Below are positions 1-21,238 of a stretch of 24,544 bases of DNA, in pieces. Source of the stretch: a virus (lineage: Duplodnaviria > Heunggongvirae > Uroviricota > Caudoviricetes); IMG/VR virus record IMGVR_UViG_2660238269_000012; one strand, 5' to 3'. The notes beneath the pieces were generated by a model. It worked only from the letters and a program-made list of their open reading frames with translations. It was not told the origin of the DNA and did no database searches. The position numbers and the translations under genes are program-made. How positions within the stretch are numbered: the stretch's first letter is position 1; each line of letters opens with the position of its first letter.

Positions 1-57
1 TACCAATAACGGCGAGTAAGTAGTACGCATCTTACCTCTTTTTTAGAGATAACCATT

Positions 58-168
58 ATGACAATAGAAAAACACGAAAGAAGCACTAAGGATTTGGTGA
101 AAGCAGCAGTATCGGGATGGCTGGGCACTGCGCTTGAATTTATGGATTTCAAGAGTCATGCGTGTTAA
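58..168 (+). pseudogene. ydfJ: 5' fragment of MFS transporter ydfJ, interrupted by prophage insertion
   Basis: ATG at 58 translates MTIEKHERSTKDLVKAAVSGWLGTALEFMDF, then KSHAC and stop. The ...EFMDF end is continuous with MDFQLYSLGAALVFHEIFFP at 23261, together giving a ProP-like MFS N-terminus. Confidence 0.8.
136..150. repeat. attL core, direct repeat with attR
   Basis: gaatttatggatttc here versus gaattatggatttc at 23256..23269. An 11-bp identical stretch ttatggatttc sits exactly where the ydfJ reading frame is split, next to the integrase gene. Confidence 0.7.
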
Positions 169-187
169 CTATTTGATAAATATTAAA

Positions 188-1483
188 TTAATTTTTCATT
201 GCTTCGTTATGGGGCATGGTTGGGGCAAACTCGCTTAACTGTGTATTTAACAAAGCTACCTGTGCATTATTGTTTTCAGACATCCATTTTCCGTATACCT
301 GAAATACCATTTGCGCATCTGCATGGCCCATCTGGTTTGCTATAAATGCCGGGTTAGCACCAGCTGTCAGCGACCAGCAGGCATAAGTATGTCTCGACTG
401 ATATGATTTTCGATGGCGGAGTCCGGCACGTTTTATCGCTGCGTCCCACATCTGCCTTATTGAGTCAACGGTAAAATGGTCACCATAATTTTTTACTCTC
501 GCTGACACTTCAGGTTGAAAAACAAAGGTGCATTTTTGTTTTTCTGTTCTGCCATACTCTCTGAGGTGAACATCAATGATATGCTCTTTGCTCAGTCTCG
601 TTAATGTCATCTGACTCCGGAGAGCGTCGATTGCTGGCTTAATAAGATGAATGACCCGATTGGTTCCCGCCTGTGTTTTTGGTACCGTGAAACGGTCTTT
701 TGCTAAATTTCTCCTGATCATCATTGTTCCATTTTTCAGATCTATGTCCTCCCATCCAAGTGCACACAGCTCACCAGGGCGAACTCCAGTATAAACAGAA
801 ACACACCATAAATTTTTTGCTTGCTGATTTCTGCACGCATCGATAAGACGGATAAATTCTTCCCGCGAAAGAGGATCCGGAATGGTTCTTGATTCCTTTA
901 ATGGCGAGATCCCCTTAAACGGATTATCTGCCAGGTAACCGTTATCAACACCAAACTGGAACACGGCGTTAAGATTTGTCATGTAATTATTTACAGTTAC
1001 AGCCGATCTCCCTGGTTGTGTAACAATATAGTTACTTTTGGGGATCTGGTATCCAGTCAGTAACTCTTTACGAACCTCCAGTAATTTTTCTTTATTAATC
1101 GATGAGGCAAGATTTTTTTCACCGATTATGCTCAGGATATTTTTGATGACGGCACGGTATGTGTTGAGTGATGTTTTGGCGACTTCAGTTTCTTTCAGTG
1201 CCAGAAATTTTTCAGCCAGTTCTTTTATGGTTAAATCTTGTCGGGCCTCACCAAATTTTTCCAGATTGCGTGAGGAGGGAAACTGTTTTGCATAGTCGAA
1301 AACACCAGTTTTTATTGCGTAACAAACAGAGGAGCGTAGTTCACCTGCAACGCGCCTGTTTTTTGCTGTGTCAGGAACCCCCAGATTTTCCCTGACTCTT
1401 ACGTCTTTATAAACAAACCAGATACGTAATTTCCCTCCATGGTTTTCCACGCCTGTCGGATATTTCATTTCAACTTCTCTCAT
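188..1483 (-). CDS. int: tyrosine-type phage integrase
   Basis: 431-aa ORF with a C-terminal catalytic region (RHTYACW, VFQVYGKW) and an arm-binding-type N-terminal domain. The Met at 1468 has a better SD (GAGAAG) and is the likelier start. Lies next to attL. Confidence 0.9.
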   Translation of the reverse strand: MREVEMKYPTGVENHGGKLRIWFVYKDVRVRENLGVPDTAKNRRVAGELRSSVCYAIKTGVFDYAKQFPSSRNLEKFGEARQDLTIKELAEKFLALKETEVAKTSLNTYRAVIKNILSIIGEKNLASSINKEKLLEVRKELLTGYQIPKSNYIVTQPGRSAVTVNNYMTNLNAVFQFGVDNGYLADNPFKGISPLKESRTIPDPLSREEFIRLIDACRNQQAKNLWCVSVYTGVRPGELCALGWEDIDLKNGTMMIRRNLAKDRFTVPKTQAGTNRVIHLIKPAIDALRSQMTLTRLSKEHIIDVHLREYGRTEKQKCTFVFQPEVSARVKNYGDHFTVDSIRQMWDAAIKRAGLRHRKSYQSRHTYACWSLTAGANPAFIANQMGHADAQMVFQVYGKWMSENNNAQVALLNTQLSEFAPTMPHNEAMKN

Positions 1484-1502
1484 TAGTTAGTGTGGCTTTT
1501 AG

Positions 1503-1754
1503 TCAAGTAAGATGACGTCTTGGTCTCGCTGATGCCTGGCGCTCAATCCAGCGATCAATTTCTTCCAGGTTGTAAAAGCATGGACTGTTATCCCATGGCA
1601 TACCGTCATGAGCGACATGCTTATATTCCCTTCCTTCCATAAACGATTTTTCCCGGGCCTTTTTTAACGTACCTTTTTTTATTCCTTTCAGCGCAATTAA
1701 CTGCTCTTCGGATACCCATTTGCCGGGAGAGACAATCATGATTACTTCGCTCAT
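1503..1754 (-). CDS. xis: excisionase-like small DNA-binding protein
   Basis: 83-aa ORF immediately upstream of int on the same strand, the lambda int-xis arrangement; small basic protein. Confidence 0.6.
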   Translation of the reverse strand: MSEVIMIVSPGKWVSEEQLIALKGIKKGTLKKAREKSFMEGREYKHVAHDGMPWDNSPCFYNLEEIDRWIERQASARPRRHLT

Positions 1755-1826
1755 CGATTTCTTTATCTCTTACATCAGACGAGCGCCGGTTGCAGAATAC
1801 CAGTCACAACCGGCGACAGTTGAACA

Positions 1827-3860
1827 TTAAGAATCAGCCTGACTCGGGATCAGTTTTTGCCAGATAACTGAAACGTATTTTGCCTGGTAACGGGCGTCAT
1901 CAAGTGCATTATGGCGCTCACCTTCGAATGGAATAGCCGTTCTGGCATCGAAGTCTATGGCTTTCCCCAGCTCAACGATTGTGCGTACATCGCGATCGTT
2001 GTAGTAACGCCACGGGCAGGGGATCCCCTGCCGTTCGTATGAACGGCGCAAAATCGTGTTGTCGAAGTTGGCTCCATTTCCCCAAACCTGAACAAAAAAT
2101 TCACCGGAGTTTTCGTCGATAAATTCTCGCAATTGTAACAGTGCATCATCTAACGGGATTTCATCGGTCATAATGGCAGATTGCGCTTCGCGTGATTGCT
2201 TAAGCCACCATTTAATGGTGTCCCGATCAATGACTCCGCCAGCAGTTTCCAGATCGATAGTCTTACTAAATTCCGGTCCCATATCTCCGGTTTGCGGATC
2301 GAAAAATATTGCACCTATTGAGATGATCGGGGCATCAGGATTTTTTCCCATGGTTTCAAGGTCGATCATTAGATGGTCACACGTCCTGCTGGTGGATGTG
2401 ATTTCGTGATGACCGTTCACCTTAATTGGGTGATCTGCCGTCTCGCCAGTTTCATTATCGCTATTGTGATGCTGATTGCCGCCAGTGTTCTCCTTGTGTG
2501 GATGTTCAGCGCCTTCCATTTCCTCCGGATCATCTTCCTGAACTTCAACCTGATACTCTTCATCGAATGTTTCTTGGTATGTTGCGTCGCCCATCACCGC
2601 GCCACAATCAGGGCAGTTGCCGCCGCCGGTCTGACCGCAGGCGGTGCAGACTTTTTCCACTTCCTGTTGCGCTACTGGTTCAGGCTGTTTCGTTTCTGGC
2701 TCGTTTTGTAACGCATTTGGACTGTTTTGTTCCGCTTTTTGGTAGTTCCGTTCCGATTCATGCTGGTTCTGGTTCACAGAATCGCGGGTCTGGAGCCCCT
2801 TAACCCATTTCGGATCATTCGGGTCACTAATCCCTTCAACAAATTCACCACGTGATGCAGCAAGCAACTTATCGGCGTCAGGCTGGCTGATATTGGCTGC
2901 CTGCATAATTTTGTTTACTTCGTCAGCGGTAACTTTTATCGGCTCTGGTTGTTCTGAATCTTCAGCGGTATCTACATTTTGCGGTAAGCCCGTGTATGTG
3001 CCATTTTTTCGGGCAAAATATTCTTCTTTTGTGATTTCAGTGGCGCCAGCAGCCAGTGCCTTATCCAGACCAGAGAGTTTGTTTGCGCGACCGTATTTTT
3101 CTCCGTCCTTATCTGCGAAGAGGAAATAGAACGGCCCCTCACGCTCTACAGATGGTTCAGCTTCCGGCGCGGTTTCATTTTTTGGGATATCAGATACCTC
3201 AGTTTCCACTGCATCAGTTTGTGTTTCTGATGACTGGAGAACATCAACAGTGCCCAGGTCTGTTTCTTCATTCTCAAACACGCCCTTTGTCGTCAGGTAT
3301 TCGCAGATATATTTGTTCAGTGCTACGGGATCTTTGTGAATGTCGATCGGACGCTCACGGACAAGGCCAAAAATAGTTTGGCGGTCGTAGCGAAGGGCAT
3401 CAGGCTGTTTGCGCATTGATGCCGAGATACGCTTCCAGTCTTCGCGGTCGTTGTCGATAACTTCTTTTTTTGCCCAGCGATGGATGCTGCCGTCAATGTT
3501 TCCGGCATCCACATCACTAGGCCAGAGAGCGTAGGCCAGTTCGTCATCCAGTGTTTTCCATGTCTGCTTGTATTCGCGATGAATGGCAGCAATGACCGGG
3601 CTGATTTTTCCTGTTGAATTTTCAGTGTACTGTTGATTGGCTCTGGCGCGGGCGAGATCAACAACAGACGTGTATTTTCCGGTTTCCTTGCGTTCACCTT
3701 CGCGACGTTTTTTCCAGATGCGCATCTCTGCCTGAATTTCGGGCCATTTAGCACCAGGAATACATTTATGCTTAACCCACCCAATGGCATGCAACTTAAG
3801 CTCCGGATACGGGTTATTCCCCTCTGAACAGGCGCGTAAGGACTGGCAAAACGCCCGCAA
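1827..3860 (-). CDS. large phage protein with C-terminal DEDDh (DnaQ-like) 3'-5' exonuclease domain, acidic low-complexity middle and a C4 zinc-ribbon motif
   Basis: C-terminal motifs MIDLETMG (Exo I), WGNGANFDNTIL (Exo II), ERHNALDDARYQ (Exo III, H-x4-D); CTACGQTGGGNCPDCG zinc ribbon; D/E/Q-rich region. The codon at 3860 is TTG; the first ATG is at 3725, so the start is uncertain. Confidence 0.75.
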   Translation of the reverse strand: MRAFCQSLRACSEGNNPYPELKLHAIGWVKHKCIPGAKWPEIQAEMRIWKKRREGERKETGKYTSVVDLARARANQQYTENSTGKISPVIAAIHREYKQTWKTLDDELAYALWPSDVDAGNIDGSIHRWAKKEVIDNDREDWKRISASMRKQPDALRYDRQTIFGLVRERPIDIHKDPVALNKYICEYLTTKGVFENEETDLGTVDVLQSSETQTDAVETEVSDIPKNETAPEAEPSVEREGPFYFLFADKDGEKYGRANKLSGLDKALAAGATEITKEEYFARKNGTYTGLPQNVDTAEDSEQPEPIKVTADEVNKIMQAANISQPDADKLLAASRGEFVEGISDPNDPKWVKGLQTRDSVNQNQHESERNYQKAEQNSPNALQNEPETKQPEPVAQQEVEKVCTACGQTGGGNCPDCGAVMGDATYQETFDEEYQVEVQEDDPEEMEGAEHPHKENTGGNQHHNSDNETGETADHPIKVNGHHEITSTSRTCDHLMIDLETMGKNPDAPIISIGAIFFDPQTGDMGPEFSKTIDLETAGGVIDRDTIKWWLKQSREAQSAIMTDEIPLDDALLQLREFIDENSGEFFVQVWGNGANFDNTILRRSYERQGIPCPWRYYNDRDVRTIVELGKAIDFDARTAIPFEGERHNALDDARYQAKYVSVIWQKLIPSQADS

Positions 3861-3879
3861 AAAACTCTCGAGGGCAAAG

Positions 3880-4050
3880 GTGAAGAAACCTGCTGTGGTT
3901 GATCCGGACCTTATCTGGTCATCACCTGACGGAGAAATACGTCGCTACGACAGTCGCCTAAACATAATCTGTCGCGAGTGCCGGAAGAGCGAAGTTATGC
4001 AGCGCATACTGGCTTTCTATCAGGGTAATTTTCAGGACGTGGCGCAGTGA
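3880..4050 (+). CDS. hypothetical small protein
   Basis: Possible GTG start at 3880 preceded by GAGGG; runs to the TGA at 4048..4050, which overlaps the GTG of the downstream fragment. Weak support. Confidence 0.25.
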   Translation: MKKPAVVDPDLIWSSPDGEIRRYDSRLNIICRECRKSEVMQRILAFYQGNFQDVAQ

Positions 4051-4181
4051 GTGCACCGGCAACCATTCTTGATATGTGCTGTGGCAGCCGCATGTTCTGG
4101 TTCGATAAGTCTGACGAACGGGCGATATTCAGCGATATCAGAAAAGAAGGATACACATTACGCAATGGGAGACGCTTGATT
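4047..4181 (+). pseudogene. N-terminal fragment of a putative SAM-dependent methyltransferase, truncated by IS911
   Basis: Translates VSAPATILDMCCGSRMFWFDKSDERAIFSDIRKEGYTLRNGRRLI. ILDMCCGS resembles methyltransferase motif I. The frame stops at the TGA formed by the first three bases of the IS911 left inverted repeat. Confidence 0.3.
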
Positions 4182-4253
4182 TGAAGTGGTTTACTGAATT
4201 TGGCCACCTGAACAGAGGTGATATGCTCACCTCAGAACAACACAGGTGCCATA

Positions 4254-5401
<1,148 letters not shown>

Positions 5402-5431
5402 CTCGGTGGCCAGTTTTTGTTGACCACTTCA

Positions 5432-6449
5432 CTTCACAAAGACCGTTATCACAGGCGACGGTCCACTGGAACTGCGTACTCCGCGCGATCGTGACGGTAC
5501 CTTCGAACCACAACTGGTAAAGAAAAATCAGACCCGTATTACCGGGATGGATAACCAGATCCTCTCGTTGTATGCCAAAGGGATGACCACCCGTGAGATA
5601 GCTGCTGCGTTCAAAGAACTGTATGACGCAGATGTTTCACCGGCACTGATATCAAAGGTTACCGATGCCGTGATGGAGCAGGTTGTAGAATGGCAAAACC
5701 GACCACTGGATGCTGTTTACCCCATTGTTTATCTTGACTGTATCGTCCTGAAAGTTCGGCAGGACAGTCGCGTCATCAACAAATCGGTGTTCCTGGCACT
5801 GGGCATCAATATCGAAGGTCAGAAAGAACTGCTGGGTATGTGGCTGGCCGAAAATGAAGGGGCGAAGTTCTGGCTCAATGTGCTGACTGAACTGAAAAAC
5901 CGCGGTCTGAACGATATCCTCATCGCCTGTGTGGATGGCCTGAAAGGCTTCCCGGATGCCATCAACACAGTATATCCGAAGGCCCGCATCCAGTTATGCA
6001 TCGTGCATATGGTGCGCAACAGCCTGCGCTTCGTGTCATGGAAGGACTACAAAGCCGTCACTCGCGACCTGAAAGCGATTTATCAGGCTCCCACGGAAGA
6101 GGCAGGCCAGCAGGCACTGGAAGCGTTCGCTGCGGCCTGGGACTGTCGCTATCCTCAGATAAGCCGAAGCTGGCAGGCTAACTGGCCGAATCTTGCCACG
6201 TTCTTCGCTTATCCAACGGACATCCGCAAAGTGATCTATACGACGAATGCCATCGAGTCGCTAAACAGCGTGATCCGCCATGCGATCAAAAAGCGTAAAG
6301 TGTTCCCGACAGACGACTCGGTGAAAAAAGTGGTGTGGCTGGCAATCCAGGCGGCTTCACAGAAATGGACGATGCCACTGCGGGACTGGCGTATGGCAAT
6401 GAGCCGCTTTATTATCGAGTTCGGTGACCGCCTGGACGGCCACTTCTGA
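5432..6449 (+). pseudogene. IS256-family (Mutator-like) transposase, 5'-truncated at the IS911 right end
   Basis: Frame translates LELRTPRDRDGTFEPQLVKKNQTRITGMDNQILSLYAKGMTTREI... through DGLKGFPDAI and TTNAIESLNSVIR, typical of IS256-family transposases. The N-terminal roughly 100 aa are missing; the frame opens directly at the IS911 end. Confidence 0.8.
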
Positions 6450-6510: not shown

Positions 6511-6843
6511 TTAGACGTAAATATCAATGGTGCCAGCGGTATTTGTATCGTCTTTTTTCTCTTCTTTTTTATCAGGCTGAACTGTCGCGTCTTCATTCTT
6601 TTTCTCTGCCTGCTGCCTTAACAACTGCTCCAGTTGAGCCCAGAGGCTTTCAATTTGCTTCTGTACCAATGCAGCCATTTCTTTTTTCTGCTGTGTCGTC
6701 ATCCCCTCTTCCGATGAGATTTTCCCAAGCTTTTCAGTCAGCACCTGAATTTGTCTTGTGATTTTGGCTATTTCTGATGTTCCTTCCGGGGCGGAGTTGT
6801 TTGAAATAACGGTTGAGGTATTTCCCTGAATTGTGACAGACAT
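6511..6843 (-). CDS. flxA: FlxA-like protein
   Basis: 110-aa ORF MSVTIQGNTSTVISNNSAPEGTSEIAKITRQIQVLTEKLGK..., matching Qin FlxA in length and sequence as I recall it; SD AGGAG upstream. Confidence 0.85.
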   Translation of the reverse strand: MSVTIQGNTSTVISNNSAPEGTSEIAKITRQIQVLTEKLGKISSEEGMTTQQKKEMAALVQKQIESLWAQLEQLLRQQAEKKNEDATVQPDKKEEKKDDTNTAGTIDIYV

Positions 6844-6866
6844 AGATTTCTCCTTTTAAAAAAGCA

Positions 6867-6893
6867 CTATCGGCATGCACAAAAAAATCTTTA
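6867..6893 (-). promoter_or_regulatory. sigma-28 (FliA) type promoter upstream of flxA
   Basis: Minus strand reads TAAAGATT, an 11-nt spacer, then GCCGATAG, against consensus TAAAGTTT-N11-GCCGATAA; about 20 nt upstream of the flxA SD and ATG. Confidence 0.7.
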
Positions 6894-7045
6894 ATCGTAT
6901 TTCTTGTGTCATTAATTGTTTGATGTTCAGATTGTTTTCCTCGCGGGCTGGCGCGCCTCAGAAAGTAAAGCTTGTTGACAGGGGTAAACGTTCGGCAATA
7001 ATTTTCTGCCGCATGCGGGTGTTGCATAAAACGTGTTACGTTCCT

Positions 7046-7351
7046 TTATCGACAGGTCAGGTCACCGCTCACCCGCCGACGAGAAAGCAACACTGACATG
7101 CTAAAGCAAAAAATAGATGAATAAGTTGAGTTGTGCATATGTAGCCTGACCGTCACAAAGTATATGGTGTCTGTACCAGTAAGATGATGGCCGGACTCTT
7201 TAAAAACGAGCTGACCTGCACAATACAGGATGGACTTAGCAATGGCTGCTCCTGGCACAAAGCGGACAGTGATCACCGTTCTTACGACTACTTTCTGACT
7301 TCCTTCGTGACTTGCCCTAAGCATGTTGTAGTGCGATACTTGTAATGACAT
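7046..7351 (-). CDS. ydfV: hypothetical protein YdfV-like
   Basis: 101-aa ORF between flxA and relB, the position and length of Qin ydfV; sequence identity not independently verified. Confidence 0.5.
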   Translation of the reverse strand: MSLQVSHYNMLRASHEGSQKVVVRTVITVRFVPGAAIAKSILYCAGQLVFKESGHHLTGTDTIYFVTVRLHMHNSTYSSIFCFSMSVLLSRRRVSGDLTCR

Positions 7352-7375
7352 TTGTAATTACAAGAGGTGTAAGAC
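7320..7375 (+). promoter_or_regulatory. relBE promoter/operator (relO) with TTGTAAT repeats
   Basis: cttgtaatgacatttgtaattacaag directly upstream of the relB ATG: repeated TTGTAAT hexads in inverted arrangement, typical of the RelB-RelE autoregulated operator. Confidence 0.6.
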
Positions 7376-7615
7376 ATGGGTAGCATTAACCTGCGTATTG
7401 ACGATGAACTTAAAGCGCGTTCTTACGCCGCGCTTGAAAAAATGGGTGTAACTCCTTCTGAAGCGCTTCGTCTCATGCTCGAGTATATCGCTGACAATGA
7501 ACGCTTGCCGTTCAAACAGACACTCCTGAGTGATGAAGATGCTGAACTTGTGGAGATAGTGAAAGAACGGCTTCGTAATCCTAAGCCAGTACGTGTGACG
7601 CTGGATGAACTCTGA
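7376..7615 (+). CDS. relB: RelB antitoxin (type II TA)
   Basis: 79-aa protein MGSINLRIDDELKARSYAALEKMGVTPSEALRLMLEYIADNERLPF... recognised as RelB; stop overlaps the relE start (ATGA). Confidence 0.95.
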   Translation: MGSINLRIDDELKARSYAALEKMGVTPSEALRLMLEYIADNERLPFKQTLLSDEDAELVEIVKERLRNPKPVRVTLDEL

Positions 7616-7902
7616 TGGCGTATTTTCTGGATTTTGACGAGCGGGCACTAAAGGAATGGCGAAAGCTGGGCTCGACGGTACGTGAACAGTTGAAAAAGAA
7701 GCTGGTTGAAGTACTTGAGTCACCCCGGATTGAAGCAAACAAGCTCCGTGGTATGCCTGATTGTTACAAGATTAAGCTCCGGTCTTCAGGCTATCGCCTT
7801 GTATACCAGGTTATAGACGAGAAAGTTGTCGTTTTCGTGATTTCTGTTGGGAAAAGAGAACGCTCGGAAGTATATAGCGAGGCGGTCAAACGCATTCTCT
7901 GA
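7615..7902 (+). CDS. relE: RelE mRNA interferase toxin (type II TA)
   Basis: 95-aa protein MAYFLDFDERALKEWRKLGSTVREQLKKKLVEVLESPRIEANKLRG... recognised as RelE. Confidence 0.95.
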   Translation: MAYFLDFDERALKEWRKLGSTVREQLKKKLVEVLESPRIEANKLRGMPDCYKIKLRSSGYRLVYQVIDEKVVVFVISVGKRERSEVYSEAVKRIL

Positions 7903-8345: not shown

Positions 8346-8597
8346 ATGATGAACATCGAAGAACTGCGTAAAATTTTTTGTGAAGATGGCCTCTATGCTG
8401 TGTGCGTTGAAAATGGAAATCTTGTTAGTCATTACCGCATTATGTGTTTGCGAAAGAATGGGGCTGCGTTAATTAATTTTGTGGATGCTCGGGTCACGGA
8501 CGGATTTATCTTGCGCGAAGGTGAGTTTGTCACTTCATTACAGGCATTGAAAGAGATCGGAATAAAAGCTGGCTTTTCTGCTTTTTCAGGAGAATAA
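8346..8597 (+). CDS. rem: Rem-like small protein
   Basis: 83-aa ORF MMNIEELRKIFCEDGLYAVCVENGNLVSHYRIMCL...; same position and length as Qin rem. Confidence 0.8.
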   Translation: MMNIEELRKIFCEDGLYAVCVENGNLVSHYRIMCLRKNGAALINFVDARVTDGFILREGEFVTSLQALKEIGIKAGFSAFSGE

Positions 8598-8663
8598 ACT
8601 CATCTACAATCTTGCGCGGGGCTGAACTCCCGCTGAGTAACACCGTGCCACCGGAGAAAACCG

Positions 8664-8942
8664 ATGGCACGCAACGCAAAATATTACAATTCTGATAATT
8701 CGCCCGTTCTTGCCTGCACGCACGGGCGGTATTCTCACGCATTCAAGTCTGAATGGTTCCAGCACCCTCCATGCACTGCAGAACAGGCCGAATGGCTGAT
8801 TCATTCTTACCGCAGGCGCGGGTTCGAGGTTAAGAAAGCTCTCAGTCTCGACTATCGGCACTGGATAATCTCTGTCAGGCTGCCTTATTCCGAACGCCCA
8901 CCACGTGCGTCCCGCACTTTCCAGCAACGGATCTGGAGGTAA
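8664..8942 (+). CDS. hypothetical protein
   Basis: 92-aa ORF with SD GGAG 7 nt upstream of the ATG; its stop TAA lies inside the SD/GTG start of the downstream ydfU (translational coupling layout). Confidence 0.45.
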   Translation: MARNAKYYNSDNSPVLACTHGRYSHAFKSEWFQHPPCTAEQAEWLIHSYRRRGFEVKKALSLDYRHWIISVRLPYSERPPRASRTFQQRIWR

Positions 8943-8943
8943 C

Positions 8944-9993
8944 GTGCGGGTATTACTTAGACCTGTTCTGGTGCCTGAGCTTGGGCTGGTGGTCCTTAAG
9001 CCGGGCCGTGAATCCATACAGATATTTCATAATCCTCGAGTGCTGGTGGAACCGGAACCAAAAAGCATGCGTAATCTGCCATCCGGAGTCGTTCCTGCCG
9101 TTCGCCAGCCGCTGGCGGAAGACAAAACATTGCTGCCGTTTTTTAGTAACGAACGGGTGATTCGTGCTGCTGGCGGCGTTGGCGCATTGTCCGACTGGCT
9201 ATTACGTCATGTTACATCCTGCCAGTGGCCTAATGGCGATTACCATCACACTGAAACAGTCATTCACCGTTATGGTACCGGCGCAATGGTGTTGTGCTGG
9301 CACTGCGACAACCAACTGCGTGACCAGACATCGGAATCACTGGAGCTGCTTGCTCAACAAAATCTGACAGCATGGGTGATTGACGTCATCCGTCACGCAA
9401 TAAGCGGTACGCAGGAGCGGGAATTATCTTTGGCTGAATTATCCTGGTGGGCGGTCTGCAATCAGGTGGTGGATGCACTACCTGAGGCTGTATCGCGTCG
9501 TTCGCTGGGATTACCAGCGGAAAAAATCTGCTCGGTGTACCGCGAAAGCGACATCGTACCGGGAGAGCAGACCGCCACCAGCATATTGAAACAACGCACA
9601 AAAAATCTTGCACCGTTGCCTTACGCCCACCAGCAACAAAAATCACCACAGGAAAAGACGGTGGTAAGCATCACCGTTGATCCAGAGTCTCCGGAATCTT
9701 TCATGAAGCTGCCTAAACGTCGCCGCTGGGTTAAGGAGAAATACACACGTTGGGTTAAGACACAGCCGTGTGCTTGCTGCGGTATGCCAGCCGACGATCC
9801 GCATCATCTGATTGGTCACGGGCAGGGCGGAATGGGAACAAAAGCACATGATCTCTTTGTGTTGCCTTTGTGCAGAAAGCATCACAACGAGCTGCATACG
9901 GATACAGTGGCATTTGAAGATAAGTATGGCTCCCAACTGGAGCTGATATTTCGTTTTATCGATCGCGCGCTGGCAATTGGCGTACTGGCGTAA
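8944..9993 (+). CDS. ydfU: DUF968-family phage protein YdfU-like with C-terminal Cys/His (HNH-like) motif
   Basis: GTG start at 8944 preceded by GGAGG gives a 349-aa product. C-terminus has CACCGMPADDPHHLIGHGQGGMGTKAHDLFVLPLCRKHHNELH. Lies in the nin-region position upstream of Q. Confidence 0.8.
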   Translation: MRVLLRPVLVPELGLVVLKPGRESIQIFHNPRVLVEPEPKSMRNLPSGVVPAVRQPLAEDKTLLPFFSNERVIRAAGGVGALSDWLLRHVTSCQWPNGDYHHTETVIHRYGTGAMVLCWHCDNQLRDQTSESLELLAQQNLTAWVIDVIRHAISGTQERELSLAELSWWAVCNQVVDALPEAVSRRSLGLPAEKICSVYRESDIVPGEQTATSILKQRTKNLAPLPYAHQQQKSPQEKTVVSITVDPESPESFMKLPKRRRWVKEKYTRWVKTQPCACCGMPADDPHHLIGHGQGGMGTKAHDLFVLPLCRKHHNELHTDTVAFEDKYGSQLELIFRFIDRALAIGVLA

Positions 9994-11393: not shown

Positions 11394-11664
11394 AAAAATT
11401 CCTTAATACTGATAACTTGGCGCACTATACACACGTTCCTGAAGAAAGCTATAGTTTTTTGATGGGGTTGAAGATGGCTGGATGTCTAAAATAAACATTG
11501 CTTCATATGTTCAACTATGCGTTAATGATTGCGTCGGTTTGAAGAACAGACGATATACGAAGTAGTTTACTAAAGCAGTTCTCATTTCAGGTGTTATTCA
11601 CTTATTCCTTCTTTGAGTCTCTCCAATTAAGTACGAAGTCGTTTCTGTTATGCAAACCATTTAT

Positions 11665-11677
11665 GCCGAAAGGCTCA
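11665..11677 (+). promoter_or_regulatory. CspA-family 5'-UTR upstream box upstream of the cspB SD
   Basis: gccgaaaggctca matches the conserved upstream box GCCGAAAGGCACA found in cold-shock csp 5' UTRs, just upstream of the cspB start. Confidence 0.55.
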
Positions 11678-11693
11678 AGTTAAGGAATGTAGA

Positions 11694-11909
11694 ATGTCAA
11701 ATAAAATGACTGGTTTAGTAAAATGGTTTAACGCTGATAAAGGTTTCGGCTTTATTTCTCCTGTTGATGGTAGTAAAGATGTGTTTGTGCATTTTTCTGC
11801 GATTCAGAATGATAATTATCGAACCTTATTTGAAGGTCAAAAGGTTACCTTCTCTATAGAGAGTGGTGCTAAAGGTCCTGCAGCAGCAAATGTCATCATT
11901 ACTGATTAA
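11694..11909 (+). CDS. cspB: cold-shock protein CspB
   Basis: 71-aa [71 protein letters not shown]. Confidence 0.95.
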
Positions 11910-12189
11910 AATTCATCGCTCGTCTGTATACGATAACGAAGAAGGCTGATGCCTGAGTAGAGATACGGACAGAGTAGTGAATATTGGATCTCTTTAATAA
12001 AAAGTAAGGAGGTCCAATACATGAAACAATGGCTAGCATATTTGGCAAAATCTTAATCAGGAAAAGTATGCTAACCATTGTGGTGAAGTGCAGGTTTGCT
12101 GCATGAATAGTTTTACAGCAGAAGCTAACTGCTGGCATGGCAAAACAAAGTGCGTAAGTGGATGACTCCCACAAAAAGCACCACAATCT

Positions 12190-14218: not shown

Positions 14219-14580
14219 GGTAATATTAAATCGGAACATTTACATCGCGGAATGTAAAATTTAAATAAAAAGGACTCTTCCATGAGCCAAAATTCCTGAA
14301 ATCTTAAGGGTAAGATAAAAGGTCTTAATCAGAATGACACGTTTTATTAATAAATAAAGCTATTCTTTCATTGCTGTGTTTTTCTTTACAAAAGTAATCC
14401 TTGCTATGGGTGGTTAATCATGCGTTAATGGTGTTCTGGTTTGTTACAAATTTATCTGAAGCAGTCATTGTTATAATTTTATTATTTGTACCTCTTGAGA
14501 TTTCCTTGTTGGTTTTTCTCTCTGATATTTTTTTTCGGACCATTCTGCCCAAGGGCTAATTTCTTCAAAAGGTAATAATT

Positions 14581-14793
14581 ATGTCTAACAAAATGACTGG
14601 TTTAGTGAAATGGTTTAACCCTGAAAAAGGTTTTGGTTTCATCACGCCGAAAGATGGCAGCAAAGATGTGTTTGTCCATTTCTCAGCAATTCAGAGCAAC
14701 GATTTCAAAACATTAACTGAGAATCAGGAAGTTGAATTTGGTATTGAGAACGGACCTAAAGGTCCTGCCGCTGTTCATGTAGTGGCGCTTTGA
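14581..14793 (+). CDS. cspI: cold-shock protein CspI
   Basis: 70-aa [70 protein letters not shown]. Confidence 0.95.
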
Positions 14794-14881
14794 GGTAGAC
14801 AATATTACAAACCATATTCACTTTAGATGCCCGTGTTGTCATGGTTCCCAGTATAGAACATCATCTTTTGATGTTTCTGAC

Positions 14882-20663: not shown

Positions 20664-21238
20664 TGGCATTCAGAATGAGTGAACAACCACGGACCATAAA
20701 AATTTATAATCTGCTGGCCGGAACTAATGAATTTATTGGTGAAGGTGACGCATATATTCCGCCTCATACAGGTCTGCCAGCAAACAGTACCGATATTGCA
20801 CCGCCAGATATTCCGGCAGGCTTCGTGGCTGTTTTCAACAGTGATGAGGCATCGTGGCATCTCGTTGAAGATCATCGGGGTAAAACGGTTTATGACGTGG
20901 CTTCCGGCGACGCGTTATTTATTTCTGAACTCGGTCCGTTACCGGAAAATGTTACCTGGTTATCGCCGGGAGGGGAATATCAGAAGTGGAACGGCACAGC
21001 CTGGGTGAAGGATACGGAAGCAGAAAAACTGTTCCGGATCCGGGAGGCGGAAGAAACAAAAAACAGCCTGATGCAGATAGCCAGTGAGCATATAGCGCCG
21101 CTTCAGGATGCTGTGGATCTGGAGATCGCAACGGAGGAAGAAACCTTGTTGCTGGAAGCCTGGAAAAAGTATCGGGTGTTGCTGAACCGTGTTGATACAT
21201 CAACTGCACCGGATATTGAATGGCCAGCACTGCCGTAG
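20663..21238 (+). CDS. tfa: tail fibre assembly protein Tfa
   Basis: 191-aa [44 protein letters not shown]..., near-identical to lambda Tfa; start overlaps the stf stop (TAATGG). Confidence 0.9.

Follow-up and report, generated by a model that had tools for sequence, protein, structure and literature searches.

A truncated prophage gene at a deletion junction

The window analysed here, a 24,544-nt stretch of DNA from a virus of the Caudoviricetes (IMG/VR record IMGVR_UViG_2660238269_000012), carries an integrase gene, an excisionase gene and a long mechanical ORF on the same strand (Table 1). A first-pass annotation of this DNA had placed the long gene beside xis, which holds, and had described it as encoding a 677-aa protein with an unclear start (TTG at 3860, first ATG at 3725). 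The ORF exists, but it is not an intact gene: its codons 1–17 run antisense through a DUF977 gene, and its native sequence begins at Y18, which is residue 164 when counted in the full-length protein of 825 aa. In alignments with the corresponding locus of ATCC 8739, where an 825-aa CDS is annotated for the intact gene, window positions 1–3810 matched locus positions 1–3816 and window positions 3801–4181 matched locus positions 8427–8807, within the DUF977 gene; ~4620 bp of the intact prophage were absent from the window. These alignments show that the gene was truncated by a 4.62-kb deletion between microhomologies that match at 9 of 10 bp. Besides codons 1–163, about ten genes and the early-left promoter region were lost: the missing interval spans ydfD, dicB, ydfC/B/A, the immunity and promoter region of dicA/dicC, two genes of the replication region and half of the DUF977 gene, on its 5′ side. 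The dicF sRNA gene falls in the equivalent interval of K-12 and Tritos. The ambiguity of the start codon is no puzzle of translation but the result of this deletion, which decapitated the gene, and RefSeq records the identical allele (equivalent to window 1827–3818) as a pseudogene “missing N-terminus”. The DUF977 fragment is labelled in the same way by PGAP, both fragments flanking the junction being annotated as pseudogenes.

Of 5426 complete E. coli genomes, 91 had the identical junction, and the best-matching genomes listed carried an essentially identical copy of the ORF. A scan of positions 1400–4400 on either strand revealed no σ70-like promoter, inspection by eye revealed no convincing Shine-Dalgarno sequence before the TTG at 3860 or the ATG at 3725, and an Rfam search of the whole window gave no match in or near the ORF. 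The ORF has neither the native start codon, nor the N-terminus, nor the promoter of an intact, expressible gene. It is what remains, without promoter and 5′ end, of a gene that is common in the lambdoid prophages of E. coli, namely the 3′ 80% (codons 164–825) of the “exonuclease” gene found in the early-left operon of Qin/Tritos-type lambdoid prophages, and this remnant without its native start or promoter is most likely a silent pseudogene. The frame of the 660 native codons is still open.

Table 1 Coordinates of the features at the exonuclease locus (window positions)
Feature	Position	Strand	Remarks
Integrase gene	188..1483	−	Qin-type prophage end adjoins rspB/ynfA in related genomes
Excisionase gene (DUF1233)	1503..1754	−	Directly downstream of the ORF, same operon
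Mechanical ORF	1827..3860	−	677 codons + stop, TTG start; native exonuclease sequence is codons 18–677 only
DEDDh (DnaQ/DexA-like) 3′–5′ exonuclease domain	1860..2375	−	ORF aa 496–667; by Pfam PF16473, DexA 8KEL and alignment
Catalytic codon D655	1896–1898	−	Exo III
Catalytic codon H650	1911–1913	−	Exo III
Catalytic codon D600	2061–2063	−	Exo II
Catalytic codon E502	2355–2357	−	Exo I
Catalytic codon D500	2361–2363	−	Exo I
Acidic disordered linker 2	2391..2588	−	ORF aa 425–490; pLDDT <50
Block common with Rac recE	2432..2874	−	ORF aa about 326–476, equivalent to RecE 452–588; two helices, zinc ribbon, acidic tail
CxxC-x7-CxxC zinc-ribbon motif CTACGQTGGGNCPDCG	2601..2648	−	ORF aa 405–420; pLDDT 62–79
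Small alpha/beta domain (REGPFYFLFADKDGEKYG...)	2985..3149	−	ORF aa 238–292; pLDDT about 90–97 in both AlphaFold2 models
Acidic disordered linker 1	3150..3263	−	ORF aa 200–237; pLDDT <50
Helical scaffold domain	3270..3809	−	ORF aa 18–197; AlphaFold2 pLDDT mostly 90–98
DUF977 gene 3′ fragment	3799..4050	+	Other flank of the deletion; Pfam PF06163 profile positions 62–134 only
Deletion junction	3801..3810	.	10-bp microhomology, CTCCGGATAC versus CTCCGGCTAC; exonuclease codon 164 fused to DUF977 3′ half
Non-native ORF leader	3811..3860	−	TTG start + ~17 codons, antisense through the DUF977 gene 3′ part

The intact gene and its distribution

Isolated phages carry the parent gene intact, encoding 823–825 aa, among them Tritos, HannyBb and PhiR42_1 (98.8–100% identity). 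Its architecture, which the first-pass annotation did not recognise as that of a characterised protein, is a catalogued one: the 660 native residues of the window cover positions 164–822 of the 823-position PHROG profile phrog_2082 “exonuclease” (E 0), the intact homologue spans positions 1–823, and matches occur in 4825 of 5426 E. coli genomes; PGAP names the product “exonuclease” or “3′-5′ exoribonuclease domain-containing protein”. The ydfE pseudogene in the Qin prophage of K-12, which likewise follows dicB and ydfD, is this gene at this locus; it corresponds to residues 1–258 of the intact protein, with an identity of 98.8%. The two relics are complementary, ydfE being an N-terminal fragment cut by IS2E, whereas the window holds the C-terminal 80% cut by the deletion. 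We regard the window gene as a commonplace prophage pseudogene from a family that is known but uncharacterised; the searchable literature yielded no biochemical or genetic characterisation, or any other experimental work, on the fused architecture. DLP12 exoD, considered as a second fragment of the window gene, showed no relationship to it in BLASTP.

A RecE-like scaffold with a different nuclease

The N-terminal ~480 aa had been described as unrelated, acidic and of low complexity. Acidic stretches are indeed present, with net charges of −7 over aa 216–245 (overlapping linker 1) and −12 over aa 420–450 (overlapping linker 2), but the region also holds two predicted folded domains (pLDDT >90) and is homologous to RecE, the exonuclease VIII of the Rac prophage of E. 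coli K-12. Residues 264–629 of the intact protein aligned with K-12 RecE 278–592 at 39% identity (BLASTP, E 2e-61), and the N-terminal part matched positions 271–600 of NCBIfam PRK09709 (E 5e-84). Similarity was weak in the helical domain (to RecE 278–351) and highest in the recE block, which is 78% identical to K-12 recE in nucleotides and 71–78% in protein. This block contains the C4 zinc ribbon reported earlier, a putative metal-binding motif kept in RecE and in only a subset of family members. The helical scaffold domain had no structural relative at E ≤ 1e-3 in a Foldseek search against BFVD, and the N-terminal part had no sequence match in the PDB.

The two proteins share the non-catalytic scaffold, and their genes both lie in an early-left operon near xis and int. 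The homology stops at RecE residue 588 (592 in BLASTP), where the minimal nuclease fragment of RecE begins. The PD-(D/E)XK 5′–3′ nuclease of RecE (588/606–866) is missing from the window protein, which has a DEDDh 3′–5′ domain instead, and phmmer with RecE 596–866 found no match to the intact homologue. The N-terminal 163 aa of the intact protein also differ in type from the PF06630 (Exonuc_VIII) domain of RecE; PF06630 had no match in the window ORF, and other members of the scaffold family do have it. The RecE neighbour recT has no counterpart beside the intact Qin/Tritos-type gene, which adjoins ydfD, dicB and xis in the intact prophage as well as in the phages, with no annealase gene. Against the RecE equivalog model NCBIfam NF007259, with its curated cut-off of 1269 bits, the window ORF scored 282.9 bits and the intact homologue 286.4 bits, both over profile positions 271–602 only. 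Of the RecE (exodeoxyribonuclease VIII) features compared, the window ORF shares only the middle scaffold with its zinc ribbon and acidic linker.

Homology and predicted structure place the intact protein in the RecE family as a modular member composed, in order, of an N-terminal alpha/beta domain (lost here), the helical domain, the small alpha/beta domain, a zinc ribbon of the RecE type with acidic linker, and a DEDDh domain that, on the same grounds, occupies the slot of the PD-(D/E)XK 5′–3′ nuclease of RecE. The outcome that the first-pass annotation had named as speaking against it, a member of a well-characterised family such as a simple RecE or DnaQ paralog, is borne out in part, as the protein is related to RecE but has a different nuclease in exchange; profile searches and structure prediction of the separate parts of the ORF, proposed at the same time, gave a RecE-homologous, folded N-terminus and a DEDDh C-terminus. 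In other proteins this scaffold bears either a nuclease of the RecE type or a domain whose Rad52 matches are weak. This third scaffold-borne C-terminal module is probably a Rad52-like domain; hmmsearch comparisons with RecT and epsilon34 gp36 gave uninformative output, and sequence and profile searches against the PDB found no match to it. Homologues also carry precomputed Pfam assignments to PF27430 and PF27432.

The DEDDh exonuclease domain

Identification of the C-terminal domain as a DEDDh exonuclease with Exo I, II and III motifs, already proposed in the first-pass annotation, was upheld by profile, residue and fold comparisons. Pfam PF16473 (Rv2179c-like 3′–5′ exonuclease) matched aa 496–667 with E 1.9e-67 and 226.8 bits, against a curated cut-off of 27 bits. 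Exo I is present as D-x-E (D500 and E502 in MIDLET), Exo II as D600 in NGANFD, and Exo III as H650-x4-D655 in HNALDD. A C-terminus without the DEDDh residues, which would have overturned the assignment, was not what the profile search returned: all five are present, and in an alignment of the window ORF with T4 DexA, an EcD-like protein and epsilon34 gp34 they are invariant. The AlphaFold2 model of the domain (pLDDT about 85–92) has an RNase H-like fold and matched DexA and RNase T (probability 1.00), a Cas2-DnaQ domain and Orn/REXO2 in Foldseek, with DexA on top, and DexA (PDB 8KEL) was also the only PDB match at the sequence level (E 6e-8).

Among tested proteins, T4 DexA and E. coli EcD are nearest to the domain. 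DexA (exonuclease A) has the same fold and DEDDh residues; identity is only about 25%, and DexA differs in its extra loops, its stand-alone form and its origin in a virulent phage. EcD, an anti-T4 exonuclease of the HREX type (PMC12153337), belongs to the same DEDDh subfamily and is also stand-alone, unlike the window-type fusion. It was represented in our comparisons by an EcD-like 189-aa protein, recovered via the primers of PMC12153337, to which the window domain is 37–38% identical (E 3e-34), and which lies, like the window protein, on viral or prophage contigs. Membership of the window protein in EcD/HREX was rejected on the marker residues. The tetramerisation residue D90 of DexA is Ala in EcD and retained in the window protein (D572), and the proposed 5hmC-recognition residues W152 and D169 of DexA are Tyr and Lys in the window protein, as opposed to Trp and Glu in the EcD-like protein; the D169 position is less certain owing to an alignment gap. 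PADLOC defence models returned only a weak, generic CRISPR-associated DEDDh match.

A nearer relative in sequence is epsilon34 gp34, a “DnaQ-like” nuclease of the Rec module of a lambdoid Salmonella phage, which shares 56% identity along the entire DEDDh domain, has Lys at the DexA D169 position as does the window protein, and is likewise encoded in the early-left operon. Nucleases of this kind are described as members of lambdoid Rec modules (PMC12315714). The ~180-aa gp34 stands alone, between SSB and Abc2 genes and beside an annealase candidate (a recombination protein gene), whereas in the Qin/Tritos protein the domain is joined to a RecE-like scaffold of 640 aa, and the gene lacks annealase, SSB or anti-RecBCD neighbours. 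Tritos is the prototype of the class with a nuclease only, without annealase (SAP) or anti-RecBCD gene (PMC12315714).

Proposed function of the intact protein

We consider the locus as a whole best explained, with a probability of roughly 80%, as a truncated gene for a protein that joins a RecE scaffold to a DEDDh domain and would act as a nuclease on DNA 3′ ends in end-processing or recombination. The DEDDh domain would remove nucleotides from DNA 3′-OH ends, presumably by a two-metal-ion mechanism by analogy with DexA and RNase T. The intact protein would serve the phage as a DNA-end-processing or recombination nuclease, for which the RecE-like scaffold may supply assembly or targeting. As neither an annealase nor an anti-RecBCD gene is present in the phages that carry it, the protein would work with host recombination functions. 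It counts against a recombination role that DexA and EcD, the nearest of the tested relatives, serve other functions, and that the usual effect of 3′–5′ exonucleases on homologous recombination is inhibition, not promotion (PMC12315714).

We advance only tentatively, as possible but doubtful, a wider proposal: that the RecE-like scaffold serves as a general adaptor for interchangeable DNA-end enzymes (PD-(D/E)XK, DEDDh and Rad52-like annealase), the DEDDh version representing an unstudied, annealase-independent route of reversed polarity that would operate with host RecBCD/Chi in lambdoid phages without a Red/RecET-type system.

The most serious competitor, although in our estimate an unlikely one, is that the intact protein does not serve recombination and is instead a moron-type nuclease for defence, superinfection exclusion or DNA scavenging, which would attack competitor-phage or host DNA from 3′ ends as DexA and EcD do. 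These two are its closest biochemically tested relatives, the gene lies beside int and xis where accessory genes cluster, int-proximal DnaQ-type genes may fall outside Rec modules (PMC12315714), and annealase genes are absent from the carrier phages. Against it, the domain is nearer to the Rec-module protein epsilon34 gp34 than to EcD or DexA and is fused to a scaffold that elsewhere bears recombination domains; the HREX marker residues are not conserved and the PADLOC match is generic.

An exoribonuclease trimming or degrading host or phage transcripts is considerably less probable. The type member of PF16473 is a M. tuberculosis 3′–5′ exoribonuclease, one PGAP product name points to RNA, and RNase T, oligoribonuclease and REXO2 are among the Foldseek matches; however, several of the matched RNase T structures hold DNA substrates, and fold similarity therefore does not decide the substrate. 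The sole sequence-level match in the PDB is a DNase, the EcD-like and epsilon34 homologues occur in DNA contexts, and the domain substitutes for a DNA exonuclease on the RecE scaffold.

Equally improbable is expression of the truncated ORF itself, from TTG 3860, ATG 3725 or an internal start by read-through or an IS-borne promoter, to give a working host 3′–5′ exonuclease of, for example, the EcD/HREX-like anti-phage kind: the unbroken 660 codons, the complete catalytic domain, the spread of the allele to 91 genomes and the protection from T4 that the 189-aa stand-alone EcD confers even at leaky expression (PMC12153337) speak for it, but the native promoter region is gone, the scan and inspection found no replacement signals, PGAP calls a pseudogene, the proposed HREX 5hmC residues are replaced, and the near-identity of the copies in the best-matching genomes listed suggests shared recent descent over selection.

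Significance of the family

The window itself is of minor importance, as a decayed prophage gene whose puzzling start is explained by a deletion. Its parent family, found in Stx-associated prophages and the majority of E. coli genomes, routinely bears the wrong label “exodeoxyribonuclease VIII” and carries on the same scaffold a 3′–5′ nuclease in place of the 5′–3′ nuclease of RecE. Full-length RecE raises linear–linear recombination for an unexplained reason, and the role of the scaffold is a long-standing question in recombineering; a scaffold found with three DNA-transaction domains offers a handle on what it does. The family is also the sole recognisable recombination-type gene of the Tritos-class phages and provides a handle on its role there.

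The E. coli chromosome has roughly one Chi site per 4–5 kb. The window contains 6 Chi sites in 24.5 kb, more than in shuffled sequences; this count is close to the ordinary chromosomal density and is therefore not informative.

The window ORF is a 5′-truncated exonuclease gene

The ORF of 677 codons at 1827..3860 (−), opening with TTG, was recovered as described in the first-pass annotation, together with its C-terminal DEDDh domain, of which aa 496–667 matched Pfam PF16473 (Rv2179c-like 3′-5′ exonuclease domain) with E 1.9e-67. The Exo I (D500/E502, MIDLET), Exo II (D600, NGANFD) and Exo III (H650/D655, HNALDD) residues formed a complete set and were invariant in an alignment with T4 exonuclease A (DexA), an EcD-like protein and epsilon34 gp34; judged by sequence, the domain carries the complete catalytic machinery for 3′-5′ exonucleolysis. 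DexA (8KEL, E 6e-8) was the only sequence-level PDB match of this domain, which AlphaFold2 modelled at pLDDT ~85–92 and Foldseek grouped with DexA, RNase T, a Cas2-associated DnaQ domain and oligoribonucleases. The previously noted C4 motif (CTACGQTGGGNCPDCG, aa 405–420), acidic character (two strongly acidic stretches) and xis neighbourhood (genes for a DUF1233 excisionase and for an integrase lie downstream of the ORF) were also confirmed.

The window represents a Qin-type lambdoid prophage, which in related genomes is inserted beside rspB/ynfA and has ydfJ split at the opposite end. Compared with the intact prophage of E. coli ATCC 8739, window 1–3810 was colinear with positions 1–3816 (99.8% identity, a single 6-nt indel), and window 3801–4181 resumed at positions 8427–8807; the two parts join at an imperfect microhomology of 10 bp (window 3801–3810; CTCCGGATAC versus CTCCGGCTAC). 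Because both flanks matched ATCC 8739 at separated positions, ~4620 bp are absent from the window; in K-12 and in Tritos this interval also contains the dicF sRNA gene. As a consequence of the deletion, codons 1–17 of the ORF, including the TTG start, consist of antisense DUF977 sequence, and the native exonuclease sequence starts only at Y18, corresponding to residue 164 of the 825-aa protein. Thus, the start codon flagged earlier as unclear is indeed not native, but it poses no translation puzzle, since it is explained by the deletion that beheaded the gene. The 6-nt indel (window ~3650–3660) left one Arg-Ala repeat unit fewer, ARAR here compared to ARARAR in the intact ATCC 8739 gene, and is a small repeat-length polymorphism.

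The identical allele is annotated in RefSeq as a pseudogene “missing N-terminus” adjoining a DUF977 pseudogene, and the junction is shared by 91 of the 5426 complete E. coli genomes scanned with a 90-nt probe spanning it. No sigma-70-like promoter was predicted within window 1400–4400, and inspection by eye revealed no convincing ribosome-binding site ahead of TTG 3860 or ATG 3725. The window copy is most likely a silent pseudogene.

At full length the gene encodes 823–825 aa and carries the annotation “exonuclease” in ATCC 8739. Over the part kept in the window, it was 98.8–100% identical in three isolated phages, PhiR42_1, HannyBb and Tritos; identity was 81–88% in mEp460_ev081, Evi and the PPompW/Stx2a prophage records. 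The intact protein matched PHROG phrog_2082 end to end, Pfam PF27430 and PF27432 were precomputed on its relatives, and related sequence was present in 4825 of the 5426 E. coli genomes. The ORF in the window has already been annotated as a pseudogene, and its parent gene is both catalogued and very common among prophages.

Table. Predicted domains, deleted genes and neighbouring features of the window ORF
Feature	Position	Remark
N-terminal alpha/beta domain		~100 aa; missing from window (AlphaFold2)
Helical domain	aa 18–197	pLDDT above 90 (AlphaFold2)
Disordered acidic linker	after helical domain	AlphaFold2
Small alpha/beta domain	aa 238–292	pLDDT ~95 (AlphaFold2)
Two helices	after small alpha/beta domain	AlphaFold2
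Zinc ribbon		predicted, moderate confidence (AlphaFold2)
Disordered acidic linker	between zinc ribbon and exonuclease domain	~65 aa (AlphaFold2)
Exonuclease domain	last in order	AlphaFold2
Exonuclease gene codons 1–163		in lost segment
ydfD, dicB, ydfC/B/A		in lost segment
dicA, dicC		in lost segment; immunity and early-promoter region
YdaT-family gene, replication-type gene		in lost segment
DUF977 gene, 5′ half		in lost segment
IS3-family orfA	4218–4556	after methyltransferase remnant
IS3-family orfB	4583–5401	after methyltransferase remnant
flxA (Qin cargo)	6511–6843 (−)	intact
relB-relE (toxin-antitoxin)	7376–7615, 7615–7902	intact

A RecE-like scaffold with an exchanged nuclease

The part of the protein that precedes the DEDDh domain (the scaffold), initially regarded as unrelated, proved to be RecE-like by both NCBIfam profile and BLASTP. 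Positions 271–600 of the NCBIfam RecE model (PRK09709) matched aa 100–477 of the ORF with E 5e-84, though with a score far below the whole-protein cut-off, and residues 264–629 of the intact protein aligned with residues 278–592 of K-12 RecE with E 2e-61. The similarity was mosaic: ~20–25% protein identity in the helical region and the remainder of the scaffold, and 71–78% protein and 78% DNA identity to Rac recE across window 2432–2874, which encodes the two helices, zinc ribbon and acidic tail. The latter segment represents a mosaic exchange with its downstream edge at RecE residue 588, the start of the C-terminal RecE fragment used in recombination experiments. The RecE similarity of the scaffold stops at this residue. 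The protein is therefore a paralogue of RecE whose PD-(D/E)XK 5′-3′ nuclease has been swapped at the linker for a DEDDh 3′-5′ nuclease. This swap of nuclease polarity is the notable aspect, and the interest lies with the family rather than with the truncated window copy. AlphaFold2 models were built for the native 660 aa of the window and for residues 1–438 of an intact homologue (mean pLDDT 86.6); the scaffold gave no significant structural relative in Foldseek against BFVD and no sequence relative in the PDB.

An exhaustive scaffold search of 1.84 billion representative proteins returned only 193 clusters at 50% identity. Local phmmer searches revealed a combinatorial design among the long members, with a common middle region, two alternative N-terminal modules (Qin type or RecE type, Pfam PF06630), an optional zinc ribbon present in only a subset, and a C-terminal module of at least three kinds: DEDDh domain, RecE nuclease, or a domain of ~180 aa (the third module) with the invariant motif KKSLTDA..KKALS.LGF..D. 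The third module occurs in nine representative proteins, none from the window (alignment A4; P0152, P0165, P0178, P0190, P0205, P0215, P0216, P0244, P0254). Weak but consistent Pfam Rad52_Rad22 matches in eight of the nine (best E 0.0012, just under cut-off) suggest scaffold-annealase fusions, which may be what PMC12315714 refers to as “RecE-2” proteins, without a nuclease domain.

Recombination or defence

Our best inference is that the intact protein would act as a 3′-end DNA-processing nuclease belonging to the phage recombination or end-processing repertoire. The stand-alone homologue epsilon34 gp34, 56% identical to the exonuclease domain, lies within a canonical recombination module whose genes run recombination protein, SSB, gp34, Abc2, and DnaQ-like nucleases of this kind are described as members of lambdoid Rec modules (PMC12315714). 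The same study presents Tritos as the prototype of a class that has a nuclease alone, lacks both SAP (annealase) and anti-RecBCD, and has many Chi sites. It warns that DnaQ-type genes close to int may fall outside Rec modules and that 3′-5′ exonucleases usually inhibit recombination. Literature searches yielded no experiments on the scaffold-DEDDh fusion protein.

A role in defence or scavenging is the main rival. PMC12153337 demonstrates DNase activity for T4 DexA and for EcD, a homologue from E. coli that protects against T4 through cleavage of 5hmC DNA. The EcD-like protein (189 aa), recovered via a primer sequence from that paper, carried Ala at position 78, in agreement with its statement on EcD, and was 38% identical to the window exonuclease domain. 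The Asp at the DexA D90 position is kept in the window protein, whereas the proposed 5hmC-recognition positions W152 and D169 are Tyr and Lys; this Lys is shared with epsilon34 gp34, unlike EcD. EcD-like “HREX” exonucleases (189 aa, MIDTETLG... start) were also present on viral-classed IMG/VR contigs (L009, L014, L024, L025, L027, L030), and the published host defence gene EcD may for this reason itself be prophage-borne.

Repeated inactivation and prophage decay

K-12 ydfE (5079–5999 of the K-12 locus) corresponds to residues 1–258 of the intact protein and is interrupted by IS2E, and in strain 1332KP an IS3-family element spares only the last 465 codons (1827–3224 of that locus). Together with the microhomology deletion described here, the exonuclease gene has been inactivated in at least three independent ways across E. 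coli lineages, by IS2 insertion, IS3-family insertion and deletion.

The window prophage shows further decay at 4047–6449, comprising a broken methyltransferase gene and IS elements. The SAM-dependent methyltransferase gene following DUF977 stops at ~4181, and the ORF at 5547–6449 resembles a truncated IS1414 (IS256-like) transposase annotated at the equivalent position in strain 1332KP. The Qin cargo genes flxA, ydfV and relB-relE (6511–7902) are intact next to the decayed early region.

Rfam identified two cspA-type thermoregulator leaders, probably ahead of cspB and cspI homologues as judged from related genomes, and one IS009 RNA (11533–11925, 14435–14820 and 21006–21204), the IS009 RNA lying near the tail-fibre/tfaQ region. 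Six Chi octamers (GCTGGTGG), more than in shuffles, occur at 2388–2395 (+), within the ORF, and at 8985, 9042, 9575, 9627 and 13609; going by the genome-wide Chi frequency, six per window is about the normal E. coli density.
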